From the IMG/VR virus record IMGVR_UViG_3300045988_115844: DNA of 37,931 nt. The stretch is one strand, 5' to 3'. Positions 4,034 to 30,200 of this stretch are shown piece after piece. The translations under genes and the position numbers were made by a program. The notes under the pieces were generated by a model. It made no database searches, was not told where the DNA came from, and saw only the letters and a program-made list of their open reading frames with translations. This stretch comes from a virus. Numbering within the stretch: position 1 is the first letter of the stretch; every line of letters begins with the position of its first letter.

Positions 4034-4681
4034 ATGGGCAGAGCAATAAGCAATAAAAATGTGTTGGCGGCACAGTTCGAGACGGCAGATTTTGACGGAC
4101 CATTTCTGGCAAGTTTTGGCCGTCCTGAGCTGCGTGGCGCTTGGCTGATTTTCGGAGGAAGCGGCAGCGGTAAGACCACTTTCCTGCTGATGCTTTGCAA
4201 GTATCTTTGTAAGTTTCGGCGTGTGGCTTATAACTCACTTGAACAGGGTTTGAGCCTGTCCTTGCAAAAGGCTTGGGAACGTGTGGGAATGGAGGAAGTA
4301 GGCAGCCAAATAATTCTGCTCAACAAGGAATGTATGGCAGACCTTCGCTTCAGGCTGCGCAAGCGTAAAAGCCCAGAAGTCGTGGTGATTGACAGTGTGC
4401 AATATCTGCATGGTTGGAAATGGAATGACTACACCAAGTTAAAAGATGAGTTTCCGGACAAACTTTTCATTTTCATAAGTCAAGAAAAGCACGGAGAACC
4501 TAAAGGAAACCTCGCGGTATCAATCCGCTATGACGCTGAAATTAAAATTAGGGTGGAGGGTTACAAGGCATTTGTAACATCGCGCTACGAGGTGCCGGAA
4601 CTTGGGGAGGGCGGCAAGGACTTTATAATCTGGAAAGAGGGCGCTGACGCATACTGGTTAAATCAAATAAAAGAAAAATGA
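4034..4681 (+). CDS. P-loop NTPase (RecA/KaiC-like fold suspected)
   Basis: Walker A GGSGSGKT and Walker B-like VVVIDS. Confidence 0.55.
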   Translation: MGRAISNKNVLAAQFETADFDGPFLASFGRPELRGAWLIFGGSGSGKTTFLLMLCKYLCKFRRVAYNSLEQGLSLSLQKAWERVGMEEVGSQIILLNKECMADLRFRLRKRKSPEVVVIDSVQYLHGWKWNDYTKLKDEFPDKLFIFISQEKHGEPKGNLAVSIRYDAEIKIRVEGYKAFVTSRYEVPELGEGGKDFIIWKEGADAYWLNQIKEK

Positions 4682-5169
4682 TTATGGCAAAAGAAAATAA
4701 GACTATGGACCAGATCCACCGTGGACTGCTTAAAAAGTTCCATACCCTTTGTAGTGTACTTGGTATGTCAGAGGACCAAAAAAGCACGTTGTTGCAAAGT
4801 TGGGGCGTGGAGAGCAGCAGGGACCTCAGCCAGCACCAGCTAATAGACATCTGCGCCAAGCTGAGCGAACAGGTGAACCATAAGGACGGCACCGCTTCGC
4901 TTGACAAAATGAGAAAACAACTGATTGCGGCAATAGGCTGCTGGTTGCGAGAAACGAGCCAAGAACAGAATATAAGCAAGATTAAAGGCATTGCGTGCCG
5001 TGCTTCCGGTTACAGCGACTTCAACAAGATACCGAGGGAACGGCTGCGCAACCTTATAGCGGCATTCAACAACAAGACCAAGGATAAAAAAAGTGTGGAT
5101 GCGCTGGCAAGTACCATGCTTATGCAGGCGTTTTTAGGTGGCAAAGATGTAGAACCAACATATAATTAA
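4678..5169 (+). CDS. GemA/Mu gp16-like (DUF1018-like) protein
   Basis: ATGA overlap. The pattern LGMSEDQKSTLLQSWGVESSRDLSQHQL resembles the GemA family, and the position matches the Mu early region. Confidence 0.5.
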   Translation: MIMAKENKTMDQIHRGLLKKFHTLCSVLGMSEDQKSTLLQSWGVESSRDLSQHQLIDICAKLSEQVNHKDGTASLDKMRKQLIAAIGCWLRETSQEQNISKIKGIACRASGYSDFNKIPRERLRNLIAAFNNKTKDKKSVDALASTMLMQAFLGGKDVEPTYN

Positions 5170-24408: not shown

Positions 24409-26574
24409 ATGGCTAACGTTTTTGACTATATTTTCAATATCGGGGGCAATTATACTGCCACCATAAACGGCATGAGCACGGCGACCGGGGATTTTTCGGC
24501 CAAGGTTGACGGTGCGCAGAACAGCATCGGGAAACTTACCTCGGTGCTTGCCGGTCTTGATTTGGTCAAAAATGCCATAGACGGCTTGCAGCAGGCGACC
24601 GACGCATTCAGCGTGTCAGGCATAGCACTTGACCGAAATATGCACGACCTCAGCGCAGTTGCGGGCGTTACGGGGGACAGCCTTAGGCAGATTGAGGGCT
24701 TCGCCCGTCAGTCGGCAAAGACCTTCGGGACCGATGCCAGCGTTGCCGTGGAGGGTTACAAACTGCTTTTGTCCCAGTTAAGCCCTGAACTTGGTAAATT
24801 CCCGGAAGCCCTGCGCGATATGGGCGAAAGCATACAAATCACCAGCAAGCTGATGGGCGGTGACGGTGTGGCGGCAGCACAGGTTCTGACAACGGCGATG
24901 AACCAGTATGGCGTAAGTCTGGAGGACCCGACGGCAGCCAGCAAGGAAATGGCGCGTATGATGAACGTAATGGCGGCAGCCGGTCAGGCTGGTTCTGCGG
25001 AGCTTCCGGCCATATCGGCAGCATTGCAGCAGTGCGGAATGGCTGCCAAGGCGGCAAATGTCAGCTTTGAGGAAACCAACGCAGCCATACAGGTGCTTGA
25101 CAAAGCCGGAAAGAAAGCCAGCGAGGGCGGTGTCGCCCTTCGCAATGTGCTTGGTCAGCTTTCAAAAGGCAGGTTCGTGGAGAAACAGGCGTTAGAAGAA
25201 CTGCAAAAAGCCGGCATCGATGTGGTGGCGTTGGGAGACAACAGCAAGAGCCTTAAAGAGCGGCTCGAAATGCTAAAACCCATGCTGAATGACAGTGCCC
25301 TGCTGTCAAAGTTCTTCGGTGTGGAAAATGCCAACGCAGCCCGTGCGTTGATACAGGGCACAGAGGCGTTGGACGGCTTCACGCAAGCAGTAACCGGGAC
25401 AAACAGCGCCACCGACCAGGCGGCAATCATCATGCAGAGCTATGCGGAGCGTCAGGCGGTTGTAAACCAGAAAATAGAGGATATTAAAATATCCCTTTTC
25501 CAAGCTACGGGCGACTTGACATTGTGGGCTGGTGCCGTATTTAATGCCGCTATGCCATTGGCGCAAATATCCCCTTTGATTATGCTGTTGGGCAAATTGA
25601 TGCTGTGGGTTAAGGGGCTTAACTGGGCAGGTATGTGGACATGGATAAAAAACTCCGTATATGTCGCCCGGTTGCAAATGGCGTTTATGAACCGTGAACT
25701 AATCACAGGGCAGTTTGTCTCCAACGGCTTTCTGATAAACATCACACGCGCCACATTGGCGGTGCTTCGTTTCGCCACGGTAGGCATATTCAACGCTCTC
25801 AAAGGTCTTGGCGCACTGGTGTTGTCATTCATAACCGGGGGCACCGCTTCCGCTACGTTCTCCACCGTTGCCTCCACTTCCTTTGCGACCTTTGCCGCAA
25901 CTGCAAAGACCGCTTGCCGTGCCGTGTCGGTAGCCATTATGAACATTCCGATAATTGGCTGGATAGCGGCAGCCATAGCCGCCCTCATTGCCGTAGGCGT
26001 TTATTTCTGGAACACTTCGGCAAAATTCAGGGCGGTGCTGAAAGGTACTTTTGCAGCCTTCAAAGCCTGCTTTACAGGAATAGGGGAACTTGCAAAACAG
26101 ACCTTCGGGGCTATCGGCGACCTGATAAAGGCCGCTTTCAACCTTGATGCCGCAGGAATATCCACGGCACTGAACAAACTGAAAGCAGGATTTTCCGACT
26201 ACGGCAAGCAGATAGGCGCGGCATTCAATGAGGCATACGACGCGGAGATGAGCGAAGCCGCCAAGAAAGAGGCGGCGGAGAAAGCCAAAGGCAAGAAAAC
26301 CGCTCCTAATGGCACAGGCGCAGCAGTTCCGTCCGTGGCTGTTCCAACCGTCGATCCGACAGCCGGGAGCCTGAACACCGCAACCACATCAGGCAGCGGA
26401 ACAGGCGACGGCGGAAGCGGTAAAATCCGCAACGTAACCATTAACATTGAAAAACTTGTCGAGCGCATAGAGTTGCACACGGCAACCATAAGCGAGGGCA
26501 CGGAGCAGATAAAGGAGCGAGTGCTTGAGGCCTTAATGGGTGCGCTCAATGATACCCAACTGGCAACAGAATGA
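24409..26574 (+). CDS. Tape measure protein
   Basis: 721 aa, Ala/Gly-rich, with a central hydrophobic block. Follows the chaperone pair. Confidence 0.8.
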   Translation: MANVFDYIFNIGGNYTATINGMSTATGDFSAKVDGAQNSIGKLTSVLAGLDLVKNAIDGLQQATDAFSVSGIALDRNMHDLSAVAGVTGDSLRQIEGFARQSAKTFGTDASVAVEGYKLLLSQLSPELGKFPEALRDMGESIQITSKLMGGDGVAAAQVLTTAMNQYGVSLEDPTAASKEMARMMNVMAAAGQAGSAELPAISAALQQCGMAAKAANVSFEETNAAIQVLDKAGKKASEGGVALRNVLGQLSKGRFVEKQALEELQKAGIDVVALGDNSKSLKERLEMLKPMLNDSALLSKFFGVENANAARALIQGTEALDGFTQAVTGTNSATDQAAIIMQSYAERQAVVNQKIEDIKISLFQATGDLTLWAGAVFNAAMPLAQISPLIMLLGKLMLWVKGLNWAGMWTWIKNSVYVARLQMAFMNRELITGQFVSNGFLINITRATLAVLRFATVGIFNALKGLGALVLSFITGGTASATFSTVASTSFATFAATAKTACRAVSVAIMNIPIIGWIAAAIAALIAVGVYFWNTSAKFRAVLKGTFAAFKACFTGIGELAKQTFGAIGDLIKAAFNLDAAGISTALNKLKAGFSDYGKQIGAAFNEAYDAEMSEAAKKEAAEKAKGKKTAPNGTGAAVPSVAVPTVDPTAGSLNTATTSGSGTGDGGSGKIRNVTINIEKLVERIELHTATISEGTEQIKERVLEALMGALNDTQLATE

Positions 26575-27176
26575 AATCACCCGTAAGCATATCATTTATG
26601 GCGGTAGGTGCGGCGCAGTTCGCCGCCAAGTCGCTTGTAAGGTTCAAGCCCGGACGCACGGGAGAAGCACCGAGCTGGGAGGGTCGAGGTGCGGACATCA
26701 CCACCCATGAGGTGGGCACTCCGATAACGGACCGCGCATATTGGGAGGGACGTTATGCCTTATGTACGCTGACTTTCCGCAAGGAGGACGGCTCGGAAAT
26801 GGAACTTTCAGACGCTGTGGCCGCGGTGAGCCGTGAAAGGCGCATTGTCTGCACGCCACTGACCGGACGGGACGGCACCGTGAAAGAATACATAAACGAG
26901 GGCGACTGGAACATCAACATCGTTGTGGGCGTTCAGGCGGTGCGTGGCGGTGTCATTACGGACGACTACCCGGACGAGGAACTGCGGCAGCTCCGTGAGT
27001 TCCTGGACGAAAAGAAGCCTTTGGAGGTTTACAGCGCATTCCTTGACATTTTCGACATTACGAAAGTCGTGATCAAGAATTATTCGGCGACACAGGCGAC
27101 GGAAGCCAATTATCAGGCAATCAGCATAAGCGCGGTAAGCGATGAGGATTATGAAATATACAGTAACGAGTATTAA
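26571..27176 (+). CDS. Tail/baseplate protein (unknown family)
   Basis: ATGA overlap with the tape measure gene. Confidence 0.45.
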   Translation: MKSPVSISFMAVGAAQFAAKSLVRFKPGRTGEAPSWEGRGADITTHEVGTPITDRAYWEGRYALCTLTFRKEDGSEMELSDAVAAVSRERRIVCTPLTGRDGTVKEYINEGDWNINIVVGVQAVRGGVITDDYPDEELRQLREFLDEKKPLEVYSAFLDIFDITKVVIKNYSATQATEANYQAISISAVSDEDYEIYSNEY

Positions 27177-27199: not shown

Positions 27200-28681
27200 A
27201 TGGCATTTACACAAGAACAGGAGGCGAAGCTGGCGCAGTTGCTGGCAGCCTTTGAGAACGGCAAGCGCATCAACGAACTGGACCAGGCAACCGGTGAGCT
27301 TGGCGCTATGCAGATTGAAGTCATGGACGAGACGGGCGAAACCCGGCGCATGGAGCTGGAGCGTGCAGTGTCGGAAGCCGGCAACCCGATAGCGGGCCGC
27401 TGGTGGAACGAGGACAACGCCACGACCAAGGCGGCCGGCTGGTTCGGCTCGCTTGAAGCCCTTAGAAAGTTGCCTGAGACATTGGGGCTTGGTCGCTACC
27501 TTGTGGCTGACGACCACACCATGCGCAAGCTTGACCCGAAAGACAGCACCAAGTTTGAGGACGGCAGCCCTGCGGCACTGGACGGCTCAATGGGTCAGTG
27601 TATGTGGTGCTGGTCACGTCCGTGGTACTTTACCACTTGGCGCGAGGGCTCACGCAGCTATTGGGCAATAACCTTGAAGCCTATCGAGGGGCGCACAAGT
27701 TACCGCATACCTGTTGGCGGCACTTCTTGGCTTGGTGCCGGGGTAATGGACCGCACGGAAAACAAGCTGTGTTCCGTAATCAGCGACAGCGAGCGTTATA
27801 GAGGCGGTAACGGTTCTGCACTGACCCCTGCAAATACGGAAAAACGCCCGGCACTTGATACCCCACAGGCTACAATGCTGGGAATGGCTGCAACTGCTAT
27901 CAGTACAACAGCCTTCGGCACCAACGCACGCAAGCGCGGTGACGGTTGGGAGGCTAACTGGTTCGTGGCACAGGCGGCCGTTGAAATCCTTTTGCTTGTC
28001 ATTATGGGCGACCGTAACACACAGGCTGCATTCAAGGCTGAACGTGATGCCGATGGCTTGTTCCAGGGTGGTTTTGGCGACGGTGTTACAACAATAGGCT
28101 GGCAGGACTGGGCGGACTATAACGGTAATTATCCACTTGTCCCCACGAGTGTCGGTCTGGAAATGGGCGACGGTACGGGCATAGTCTCTTACTCGTTGCC
28201 GGCAAGCGAGAGCGCGGAGAATCAGGAAATCCCATACAAGACATTTAACGTGCCTGTATTCTTTGGCTTGGTACATGCTGGCTATGGCCATTTGTGGCGT
28301 TGGGTGCGCGGCTTGATAATCAGCCAGGAAGCCGGGGTAAAAACGGAGGTGTATGTCGCACAGAGTATGGCGGCGGCCTTTGACCCTAATAGTGTGGCAG
28401 GTCTTAAAAAGGTGGCAGAATGTCCACAGAAAGAGGGCTACATCAAGCGCAAGAGTTTTGAGGGATTGTGCGCCATGCCTACTGAAGTAGGCGGAAGTTC
28501 AGCCACCTATTTTGCCGACTATTTTTATACCAACGGAGCCACTCAGACGGGCCTTCGTGTCCGCGCGGCTGGCGGTTACGCTACCTATGGTGCGACTGCG
28601 GGCGCGTTCTACGTGTCTGCGCACTATGCGGCTTCGTATGCGCTTGCGTACTACTCGTCGCCCCTATACTTGCACGAATAA
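27200..28681 (+). CDS. DGR target (variable) protein, C-type-lectin-like C-terminus; likely receptor-binding tail protein
   Basis: The C-terminus reads GGSSATYFADYFYTNGATQTGLRVRAAGGYATYGATAGAFYVSAHYAASYALAYYSS. The DGR RT lies 160 bp downstream. Confidence 0.7.
   Translation: MAFTQEQEAKLAQLLAAFENGKRINELDQATGELGAMQIEVMDETGETRRMELERAVSEAGNPIAGRWWNEDNATTKAAGWFGSLEALRKLPETLGLGRYLVADDHTMRKLDPKDSTKFEDGSPAALDGSMGQCMWCWSRPWYFTTWREGSRSYWAITLKPIEGRTSYRIPVGGTSWLGAGVMDRTENKLCSVISDSERYRGGNGSALTPANTEKRPALDTPQATMLGMAATAISTTAFGTNARKRGDGWEANWFVAQAAVEILLLVIMGDRNTQAAFKAERDADGLFQGGFGDGVTTIGWQDWADYNGNYPLVPTSVGLEMGDGTGIVSYSLPASESAENQEIPYKTFNVPVFFGLVHAGYGHLWRWVRGLIISQEAGVKTEVYVAQSMAAAFDPNSVAGLKKVAECPQKEGYIKRKSFEGLCAMPTEVGGSSATYFADYFYTNGATQTGLRVRAAGGYATYGATAGAFYVSAHYAASYALAYYSSPLYLHE
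28505..28660 (+). repeat. DGR variable region (VR), approximate limits
   Basis: Between 28574 and 28660, invariant GGT/GCG/GCT/GGC/TCG codons alternate with TAC ACC TAT ACT TAC TCT CAC TAT TAT CTT TAC TAC. Confidence 0.6.
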
Positions 28682-28841
28682 AAATTACATTGCGATAAAG
28701 GGGCTGGACCGTGCCACTTGGCAAAAGATAACATGAATGCAGAGGATGCCGGTAGGACCAAGGCGAAAGCCGTCAGGTGTTGACAGTTTCCGAAGCGTGC
28801 ATAGCAGACCCAAAGACCCGATAAAATGACCCGAAGACCCA

Positions 28842-30200
28842 ATGAAACGATACGGCTATTTGTTCGAGCGCATCTGTTCGCTTGACAATCTGCGTGCCGC
28901 CGCCTGTAATGCGGCACAAGGCAAGCGCCGGCGCGATGAGGTGCAGAAGTTTTTTGCAGACCTTGAAAGCAACCTGCAAGAGATACGCACGGAACTGCTT
29001 TGCCGGACTTACAGGACTTCACCTTATGAAGTCTTTATAAAGTACGAGCCCAAACGGCGCGAGATTTACAAACTGCCTTTTAAGGACAGGGTCGTGCAAT
29101 GGGCCATTATGTTAGTCCTTGAGCCGATATGGACACCGCAGTTTACGGCAGACACGCATGCCTGTATAAAGGGGCGCGGCATTCATTCCCTGCTTAAACA
29201 GCTGCGTAACGACTTGGCGGAAGACCCTGAGGGGACACGATACTGCTTCAAGCTGGACGTGCGCAAGTTTTACCCGAGCATAGACCATGACATCCTTAAA
29301 ATGGTCATACGCCGTAAAATCAAAGACCCTGCGGTTCTTCTGTTGCTTGATGGCATCATAGACAGTGCCCCGGGCGTTCCAATCGGCAACTACATTTCCC
29401 AATACTTCGCCAATCTTTATTTGTCAGAACTTGACCACCGCATCAAAGAGGTGGCCGGGGTGCGTTATTATTACCGCTATGCTGACGATATTGTGGTGCT
29501 GGCAGGAGACAAGGCGACTTTGCACGGTGTCCGCGTGTTCATAAACGACTACCTGAACACCGAGCGCAATTTGTCTATGAAAAGCAATTATCAGATTTTT
29601 CCGGTGGAAAGCCGGGGAATTGATTTTGTGGGCTATGTTACCTACCACACCCACAGCCTTGCACGCAAGCGCAACAAACAAGGACTGTGCAGGGAGGTGG
29701 CGAAGTTGAGAAAAAAGGGAGTCCCCGAACCTGATATCATGTTGCGGACAGCTTCACGCGTCGGCTTCATGGTGCATTGTAACAGCAAACATCTATTAAA
29801 AATTCTTGGTATGAAAAAATTCAGTGAACTTGTGCCGGCAAAGACCGGCAACCTGACAGGTACGAAGTACCACATCGATGCAATCCTGAACCGTGAAATC
29901 CACCTTACAGGTTACACGGTCGCACCGTCAAAGCACAATGCGGAACCTTGCCTCACACTCCAATACGAGATTGAGGAGCCGCTAATGGAAGTAATGGCAG
30001 ACGGAACGAGCCGCCACGTAATCGACGACCAGGGCAACCAGGTCAAAGGCTGGGTGCAGCATATAACCTTCACGGGCAGTCAGGCGCTAATACGTCAGTT
30101 GGACGGTGTGGAGATAACGGAACCGCTCAGGGCTAAAATAATAAAACAACCAATCGAACGGAATCGGTGCTTTTATAAAATCGTCGATCCGGACGATTAA
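28842..30200 (+). CDS. DGR-type reverse transcriptase with a ~120-aa C-terminal extension
   Basis: KLDVRKFYPSIDH, PIGNYISQYFANLYL (the DGR-specific SQ motif), YADD at 29478-29489, and IDFVGY. Confidence 0.85.
   Translation: MKRYGYLFERICSLDNLRAAACNAAQGKRRRDEVQKFFADLESNLQEIRTELLCRTYRTSPYEVFIKYEPKRREIYKLPFKDRVVQWAIMLVLEPIWTPQFTADTHACIKGRGIHSLLKQLRNDLAEDPEGTRYCFKLDVRKFYPSIDHDILKMVIRRKIKDPAVLLLLDGIIDSAPGVPIGNYISQYFANLYLSELDHRIKEVAGVRYYYRYADDIVVLAGDKATLHGVRVFINDYLNTERNLSMKSNYQIFPVESRGIDFVGYVTYHTHSLARKRNKQGLCREVAKLRKKGVPEPDIMLRTASRVGFMVHCNSKHLLKILGMKKFSELVPAKTGNLTGTKYHIDAILNREIHLTGYTVAPSKHNAEPCLTLQYEIEEPLMEVMADGTSRHVIDDQGNQVKGWVQHITFTGSQALIRQLDGVEITEPLRAKIIKQPIERNRCFYKIVDPDD

Follow-up and report, generated by a model that had tools for sequence, protein, structure and literature searches.

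We describe a diversity-generating retroelement (DGR) in which the two repeats that normally make up such a system have become one. The DNA is a stretch of 37,931 nucleotides from IMG/VR virus record IMGVR_UViG_3300045988_115844, which in its full length we call the window. Its DGR consists of a phage tail-protein gene with a hypervariable codon array at the 3' end, a conserved RNA motif and a reverse transcriptase (RT) gene. We observed that the variable repeat (VR) of the target gene and the template repeat (TR) are represented by a single hybrid repeat, in which diversified VR content runs directly into the 3' flank of the TR. The reading that we favor, and consider likely, is that this is a genuine DGR whose VR and TR were fused by a 402-bp deletion, with loss of canonical retrohoming and freezing of the array. 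The parts of the locus are as follows.

27200-28681, + strand: DGR target gene, encoding a tail protein of 493 residues; the body and the variable array are those of the native gene, and the last 4 codons and the stop codon are TR 3' flank.
28551-28665, + strand: the single hybrid VR/TR repeat, which aligns with both the VR and the TR of relatives.
28577-28649, + strand: span of 12 adenine-site substitutions, from comparison with the TR of the relative L126.
28650-28665, + strand: the probable deletion junction interval, ACTACTCGTCGCCCCT, the final stretch common to VR and TR; diversified sequence lies upstream of it and TR flank downstream.
28666-28706, + strand: TR-type 3' flank (ATACTTGCACGAATAAAAATTA...), identical to the TR flank of the relatives L126 and L122, with a new stop codon at 28679-28681.
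28707-28811, + strand: RT-17 RNA motif (Rfam RF03020; cmscan score of 41.2 bits against a gathering score of 40.4, E 1.8e-6).
28807-28840, + strand: four GACCC repeats (GCAGACCCAAAGACCCGATAAAATGACCCGAAGACCCAATG) directly upstream of the RT start codon, seen in the sequence and in the alignment of relatives.
28842-30200, + strand: DGR-type RT, an intact open reading frame (ORF) of 452 residues that matches the Bordetella RT bRT, Pfam RVT_1 and phrog_1423.

A preliminary description, made from the sequence of the window alone, had reported the ORFs at 27200-28681 and 28842-30200; both are indeed present, on the + strand and 160 nt apart. Implicitly, it had taken the cassette to be complete and working. 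This part did not hold. Four scans of the 37.9 kb (generic repeat finding, A-tolerant 60-mers of the VR, all-versus-all A/T-tolerant 50-mers and best-match 40-mers) found no TR on either strand of the window with any mismatch at a template adenine allowed, and the 40- to 60-mer scans of the window returned only A-rich chance matches. The one repeat that is present turned out to be a VR/TR fusion.

The fusion became apparent by comparison with close relatives. L126, an ENA k141 contig with 99.5-99.6% nucleotide identity to the window, shows the intact layout: its VR is at position 4357 and its TR at position 4759. In intact relatives, the TR lies 402 bp downstream of the VR. When L126 was compared with the window by BLAST, its left (VR) arm aligned up to 28665 and its right (TR) arm aligned from 28551. 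A second relative, L122, gave the same two-arm alignment overlapping at 28551-28665. Hence, these 115 nt represent both repeats, and 402 bp, corresponding to L126:4467-4868, are missing. The flanks agree with this. In L126 and L122, the VR is followed by CTGCTTTTTTGCGGAAGATCCG, unlike in the window. The VR-type 3' flank (CCCCT-CTGCTTTTTTGCGGAAGA..., including CCCCTCTGCTTTTTTGCGG) is absent from the window, and the TR-type CCCCT-ATACTTGCACGAATAA stands in its place. From the TR flank through the RT-17 region and the RT, the window and L126 show a single difference over ~1.5 kb. Since the sequence is VR-like upstream and TR flank downstream, the crossover must lie within ACTACTCGTCGCCCCT. At the protein level, the target of the window ends in SSPLYLHE, and relatives of 499 residues with an identical body end in SSPLCFFAEDPVIE. 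We conclude that the window copy is a VR/TR fusion with diversified VR content and a TR 3' flank. Because it has neither a separate TR nor the VR-specific 3' flank, it is, strictly, a DGR remnant rather than a DGR. The window also lacks a target-side 3' element (the initiation of mutagenic homing [IMH] site and the sequence downstream of it), a requirement that is known from phage BPP-1 and perhaps is not one of this family.

The array itself proved to be what the preliminary description had proposed, a product of adenine-specific mutagenesis. Compared with the TR of L126, the window array has 12 mismatches in 115 nt, and 12/12 fall at the 22 template adenines (hypergeometric P = 1e-10). The substituted positions are 28577, 28584, 28586, 28596, 28600, 28616, 28617, 28622, 28637, 28643, 28644 and 28649; the other 10 of the 22 adenines are retained. 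Every AAY codon of the template is substituted in the window (9/9), and a GCA codon has become GCG. The target end had been given as ...GGYATYGATAGAFYVSAHYAASYALAYYSSPLYLHE, with a series of 12 variable codons interleaved with fixed ones. Both the end and the codon series are exact, but 3 of the 12 interleaved codons (TAC at 28610-28612, TAT at 28625-28627 and TAC at 28652-28654) are Tyr codons already in the template. In L125, which is a fused relative, and in the VRs of L126 and L122, the mismatches to the TR are likewise confined to template adenines. We conclude that the window array is a genuine product of adenine-specific mutagenesis.

Two further features of the arrays were observed. 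The 5' edge of the converted tract varies: at the position of window 28543-28550, the window, L125, L126 and cluster members read QTG, QVS, QVG, LVG or QTS, and in some VRs, GTG or AGC taken from the TR precedes a 26-nt block shared by VR and TR. Because this edge varies among otherwise identical genomes, the 5' end of cDNA integration is not fixed. In L001 (L001:7357-7463), a target body 99.8% identical to that of the window is joined to an array from another TR type. The L001 array has differences at sites other than adenines, with GCG/GGC ACG in place of GCT/GGT GCG, and the contig ends within the VR. This array suggests that whole VR-TR-RT modules may be exchanged between phages.

The layout from which the window copy would have arisen was established with 119 related loci, found by a protein-guided scan of IMG/VR and GTDB genomes. 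Their alignment gives the intact order as target gene with VR, spacer of ~290 nt, TR, leader of ~160 nt containing RT-17, and RT. The window has 160 nt between the target stop and the RT start, compared with 410-600 nt in nearly all two-gene loci and ~690 nt in one distant clade. The VR 3' flank of the relatives reads ...CCCCT-CTGCTTTTTTGCGGAAGACCCG..AATCGAATAA, and their TR, which is rich in AAC/AAT, ends ...CCCCT-ATACTTGCACGAATAA. A TAnnTTTG box, which we take to be the Bacteroidetes -7 promoter consensus, lies upstream of the TR in 43/43 intact loci (L005-L105), ~50-65 nt from the TR core, and the fused loci are without it. In the L126 spacer, a terminator-like hairpin (L126:4624-4638) precedes the box; no terminator hairpin of the spacer is present in the window. 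Together, the box and the hairpin upstream of it point to a putative transcription unit dedicated to TR, RT-17 and RT.

Is the DGR active in this family? L005 and L006 have the same TR and VRs that differ at A-encoded positions only, as does the trio L013/L014/L035. The same restriction was found among a dozen 499-residue proteins with bodies identical to that of the window. Since identical bodies and TRs occur with many different VRs, the sequence comparisons indicate that the DGR is active in the phage family of the window. The suggestion that the cassette probably diversifies receptor binding therefore stands for the phage family, whose VRs vary at A sites, but probably not for the window copy, which has lost its TR.

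Two loci with a short gap of 262 nt between the genes, L111 and L112, were considered as fusions and rejected: they are intact DGRs with a compact spacer of ~80 nt. They come from two contigs of one Bacteroidales metagenome-assembled genome (MAG; CAXXPC01), belong to a distantly related phage, and have identical TRs and different VRs; at ~80 nt from VR to TR, their layout is far more compact than that of the window's clade. In L126, position 5248 (window 29045) gives TAA at RT codon 68 versus TAC in the window, and the L126 RT is called in two pieces. L126 thus has an intact TR and a broken RT, and the window has an intact RT and no longer its TR.

Perhaps the fusion was created by assembly? 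In that case, the true genome would read VR-spacer-TR, and assemblers would have collapsed the two repeats. The family does contain loci of this appearance. In L033, L046, L047, L131 (2.8x) and L128 (4.9x), the TR content is pure or the coverage lies under 5x, and the shared blocks are at least 21 nt long; collapses of this kind are expected at k = 21. In addition, many IMG/VR contigs of the family end within the VR. Contigs ending in or at the VR are L001-L003, L007-L010, L012, L019, L021, L023-L027, L030, L038, L039, L042, L045, L048, L049, L055 and L057; such ends are what the assembly of a hypervariable, repeated segment is expected to produce, and they call for caution in short-read DGR surveys.

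The window is a different case. At its junction, VR and TR have 16 nt in common, and at the 5' end 26 nt; neither block reaches the k = 31 of the Logan assemblies. The fused locus is common to a Logan k=31 contig (SRR5091481) and the ENA scaffold, the same fused protein is found in JGI/IMG, and in all it occurs in 5 contigs. Logan contigs are built only from 31-mers seen at least 2 times in a run, by graph simplification and without gap closing, and the contig crosses the junction unbranched and without a break. Hence, hybrid 31-mers that join the diversified codons to the ATAC flank were present in the reads. Further fusions whose arrays are fully diversified and whose junctions fall in the last 12-16 nt were found in L125 (Logan SRR8845483, 99.6% identical to the window with a different array), in L123/L124 (Logan ERR12330500 and ERR12330501), in L004 (IMG/VR) and in L087 (a MAG). 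L125, L123 and L124 are independent Logan cases, and the well-supported fusions number five (the window, L125, L004, L123 and L087). A pattern scan of IMG/VR for fused and normal copies of the window species gave 0 matches; in JGI metagenomes it gave 1, a 2.8x fused contig of pure TR content, which is too few for frequencies. A collapse by assemblers is, for the window, improbable. With a shared junction block of only 16 nt and assembly at k = 31, we conclude that the 402-bp deletion is very probably real.

How might the deletion have arisen, and what would it have left? In the intact form, a promoter in the spacer would drive a TR-RT-17-RT transcript. The RT would copy the TR into cDNA, with random bases placed opposite adenines, and the mutagenized cDNA would overwrite the VR at the C terminus of the C-type-lectin-like tail protein. 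The 402-bp deletion would then have joined VR to TR, in register, within the block at 28650-28665; presumably, replication slipped from one direct repeat to the other, or the two recombined by homology. What remains is the hybrid repeat with VR codons selected earlier, the TR 3' flank, the RT-17 RNA and an intact RT. Gone with the deleted segment are the master template rich in adenines, the 3' flank native to the VR, the terminator of the target gene and the promoter of the TR. The loss of these four elements would have stopped canonical mutagenic retrohoming and frozen the receptor-binding array. Products with a 3' junction may persist because they keep a VR that is already selected and functional; products with a 5' junction would display the naive, Asn-rich template sequence. 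The window element is now probably inactive, a disabled DGR with a frozen array, and our best estimate is that its RT and RT-17 RNA are still intact because the fusion event was recent. No single-nucleotide polymorphism unites the fused genomes as a monophyletic group (7.3 kb of flanks, which offered too few sites). TR-VR recombination is rare in the reconstituted BPP-1 system, and we found no description of VR/TR-fused cassettes in the literature searched for VR-TR recombination or collapse.

Several observations weigh against a simple deletion between repeats followed by decay. In an element long dead, the RT ORF and the RT-17 RNA would not necessarily have survived, yet both are intact. An identity block of 12-16 nt is short for RecA-type recombination. 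All of the well-supported junctions (5/5) lie in this block and not in the 26-nt 5' block, and this bias needs either selection for the retained VR or a more specific mechanism. The five loci of pure TR content or low coverage fit assembler collapse, and the recurrence of fusions may in part be artefact. Finally, the deletion is seen in assembled contigs; it may not be fixed in the sample, and residual heterogeneity may persist there.

One such specific mechanism is aberrant retrohoming. Mutagenized cDNA, or target-primed synthesis, would be anchored at the GC-rich 3' end of the TR and resolved on homology at the 5' end of the VR; the 402 bp would be looped out, the fused array would be a fresh cDNA copy, and the fusion would be a by-product by which the DGR destroys itself. 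This account, mechanism and by-product alike, is unlikely, yet it has points in its favor. All 5 of the 5 solid junctions lie in the GC-rich block of 12-16 nt, where DGR information transfer starts. The window and L125, although 99.6% identical, were fused independently and differ in their arrays, a sign that such events may be frequent. An unfused parent with the same arrays is not on record. On this last point, an exact-sequence look-up of six hypothetical unfused parents (with the arrays of the window, L125 and P0007) found none on record, which is uninformative. However, selection can explain the junction bias equally well, since the tip produced by a 5' junction would be naive and rich in Asn. 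Up to its junction, L128 has the same array as L129, a sibling without the fusion, which is what plain recombination or an assembler collapse would produce; the weight of this case is qualified by the position of the junction within a shared block of 22 nt and by the coverage of 4.9x. The TR 3' end of BPP-1 (IMH*) is not known to be a homing target, which also counts against this mechanism. Homing in BPP-1 requires sequence downstream of the VR (Guo 2011). If aberrant retrohoming were nevertheless at work, fusions would be RT dependent, with junctions in TCGTCGCCCCT.

We also considered whether the locus might still be diversifying. The hybrid repeat would then be both template and target, and with the RT-17 RNA and the RT would form a self-templating DGR: the 3' end of the target would be transcribed by read-through, reverse-transcribed with adenine mutagenesis and reinstalled on itself, and the system would run down as its adenines were consumed. 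In its favor, the RT ORF and the RT-17 RNA are intact and match those of intact relatives exactly, and fused genomes with identical bodies include one with pure TR content (P0123) and two with different diversified arrays (the window and P0130). However, the 5' conversion tract of L125 (CTAGTGGGC) could be copied only from the true TR 5' flank, which is gone in fused genomes. The arrays of the window and L125 therefore stem from separate, genuine TR-to-VR events that predate the fusions. Moreover, the fused genomes share no derived polymorphisms, and arrays are identical across runs (L123 = L124, and the window protein in its 5 contigs). The window has lost both the promoter of the TR and a 3' flank of the VR type, and adenine retention, at 10/22, is no lower than in ordinary VRs. 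We regard self-templating as very unlikely. Harder still to credit is a complete, working DGR whose TR lies at a distance, perhaps beyond the ends of the window. Some DGRs do have a remote TR, and the window covers only part of its contig, the ENA scaffold measuring 46 kb. Against this, the TR lies directly upstream of the RT-17 RNA in 43/43 intact relatives, that position is held in the window by the hybrid repeat with the TR's own 3' flank, and a second copy is missing from the 37.9 kb. Fusion by deletion of 402 bp, with a frozen array, hence remains our reading of the locus.

The RT is of the DGR type, as had been predicted. The motifs KLDVRKFYPSIDH, IGNYISQYFAN, YADD and IDFVGY are all present in its translation, and it groups with DGR RTs in searches of the PDB and of a phage collection. 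Its best PDB match by phmmer is the Bordetella DGR RT bRT (8ub7, E 2e-43); the group II intron RT GsI-IIC matches at E 5e-20 and a chain deposited as a "retron-type" RT at 4e-19. IGNYISQYFAN aligns to IGSLTSQLFAN of bRT, and the RT thus carries the (I/L)GxxxSQ signature of the DGR clade. The PHROG search assigned it to phrog_1423 (E 1e-123), and in Pfam it matches RVT_1 only. In NCBIfam, which has no DGR model, every match fell below the cut-off. In the phage collection, the RT came closest by tblastn to RTs of crAss-like phages, at 43-51% identity; ANMV-1, an archaeal virus, and Bordetella phages were also among the matches, and identity to every record was <60%.

The RT has a C-terminal extension of ~130 residues (residues ~320-452, window 29800-30197). 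The C-terminal 112-153 residues gave zero Pfam or PDB sequence matches. The extension is rich in invariant positions among family members, is partly common to the ANMV-1 RT and is missing from the RTs of crAss-like phages. An AlphaFold2 model of the RT, made from a shallow alignment (at least 76% identity), had a pLDDT of 54.6; in it, the extension appears at low confidence as chiefly beta strands. We found no Avd-like ORF and no Pfam match to an Avd or HRDC accessory protein in or around the cassette. A 123-residue ORF 3' of the RT is acidic, has no family match and is not Avd. The modeled extension might fill an accessory role in this Avd-less DGR.

The target was assigned to PHROG phrog_5302, "tail protein" (E 6e-73). 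Its AlphaFold2 model had a pLDDT of 79.6 and a pTM of 0.81. When the model was compared with the PDB by Foldseek, ranks 1-8 were all DGR variable proteins: the top match was TaqVP (5vf4, E 4.6e-4, prob 0.99), and the next five were Mtd variants. The TM-scores were modest (0.34-0.43), so we read the result as a DGR variable-protein/C-type-lectin-like fold and not as close homology. The C-type-lectin-like fold that had been expected of the target is thus what it models as in the predicted structure. Target-protein clusters P0004, P0020, P0024, P0030 and P0117 hold 500 to ~4,000 distinct members per 90%-identity cluster, and these sizes are consistent with massive VR diversification in natural populations.

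A structured spacer RNA of the RT-17 family also lies upstream of the RT in L126, L043, L095 and L107. In the consensus fold of the RT-17 leader, 7/14 predicted pairs covary. Its placement between TR and RT matches that of the BPP-1 Sp/RT-10 element (PMC5737381). The GACCC repeats, right after the RT-17 motif, are kept in 3 or 4 copies across the family.

The window is a Mu-like transposable myophage, with MuA- and MuB-like genes, terminase, portal and sheath, and relatives of the phage are located in Bacteroidales MAGs and isolates. The gene annotation agrees with the earlier placement of the target between the tape measure and the baseplate genes; two neighbors annotated in the window are as follows.

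24409-26574: tape measure.
26571-27176: DUF6046 baseplate-hub-like gene.

The hankyphage was considered as the identity of the window phage and ruled out: megablast against 50,697 phage records gave zero matches.

How does the locus compare with known DGRs? It resembles the BPP-1 DGR (mtd-avd-TR-brt) in its closest solved RT homologue, with the same (I/L)GxxxSQ motif, in the position of the VR at the C terminus of a tail receptor-binding protein of related fold, Mtd being among the top Foldseek matches, and in adenine-specific mutagenesis. Unlike BPP-1, the window has no Avd gene, its RT is ~125 residues longer than bRT, its VR and TR are fused, and it has no counterpart of the VR-downstream sequence needed for BPP-1 homing. 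The accessory-gene-less target-TR-RT arrangement, Architecture A, accounts for 29% of DGRs (Wu et al. 2018, PMC5758913). L126, L122, L011 and others have this layout, with target and VR, spacer, TR and RT and without avd or HRDC, but even this minimal form is defined by a TR, which the window does not have. The hankyphage DGR (Benler 2018; PMC12135933) is likewise carried by a Mu-like transposable Bacteroidales phage with MuA/MuB-like genes and diversifies a tail protein; however, it belongs to a different phage and has Avd and an intact TR (PMC12135933).

The crAss-like phage DGRs (crAssphage LMMB, cr55_1) gave the best phage-database matches, at 43-51% identity for the RT and 23-29% for the target, and the target matches are annotated as "tail protein" or "tail-collar fibre protein." They are carried by podovirus-like Crassvirales, which belong to another virus order than the Mu-like myophage of the window, and their RTs lack the C-terminal extension, the matches stopping at residues 320-345. 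TaqVP of Thermus aquaticus, the best structural match of the target model, is only 11-12% identical and is a cellular protein rather than a phage tail protein. We conclude that the DGR of the intact family is of the target-TR-RT type, has no Avd and is carried by a Mu-like Bacteroidales phage; in function it is related to the BPP-1, hankyphage and crAss-like DGRs. The window locus is probably this known kind of system in a decayed, frozen state and not a new kind.

For annotation, the locus illustrates that an RT and a hypervariable-looking array are insufficient to call a working DGR. Standard pipelines would score the window copy as TR-less or incomplete, and the reason is now explicit. If the 3'-junction bias were RT dependent, it would provide new information on where and how DGR cDNA joins DNA. 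The family is abundant in gut and rumen metagenomes, with 124 loci in IMG/VR and protein clusters of hundreds to thousands of variants, and offers many natural pairs of intact and fused loci. Fusion of this kind is apparently a recurrent decay route of phage DGRs, in which recombination between the VR and TR repeats removes the template and leaves the receptor-binding tip locked as it was last selected.

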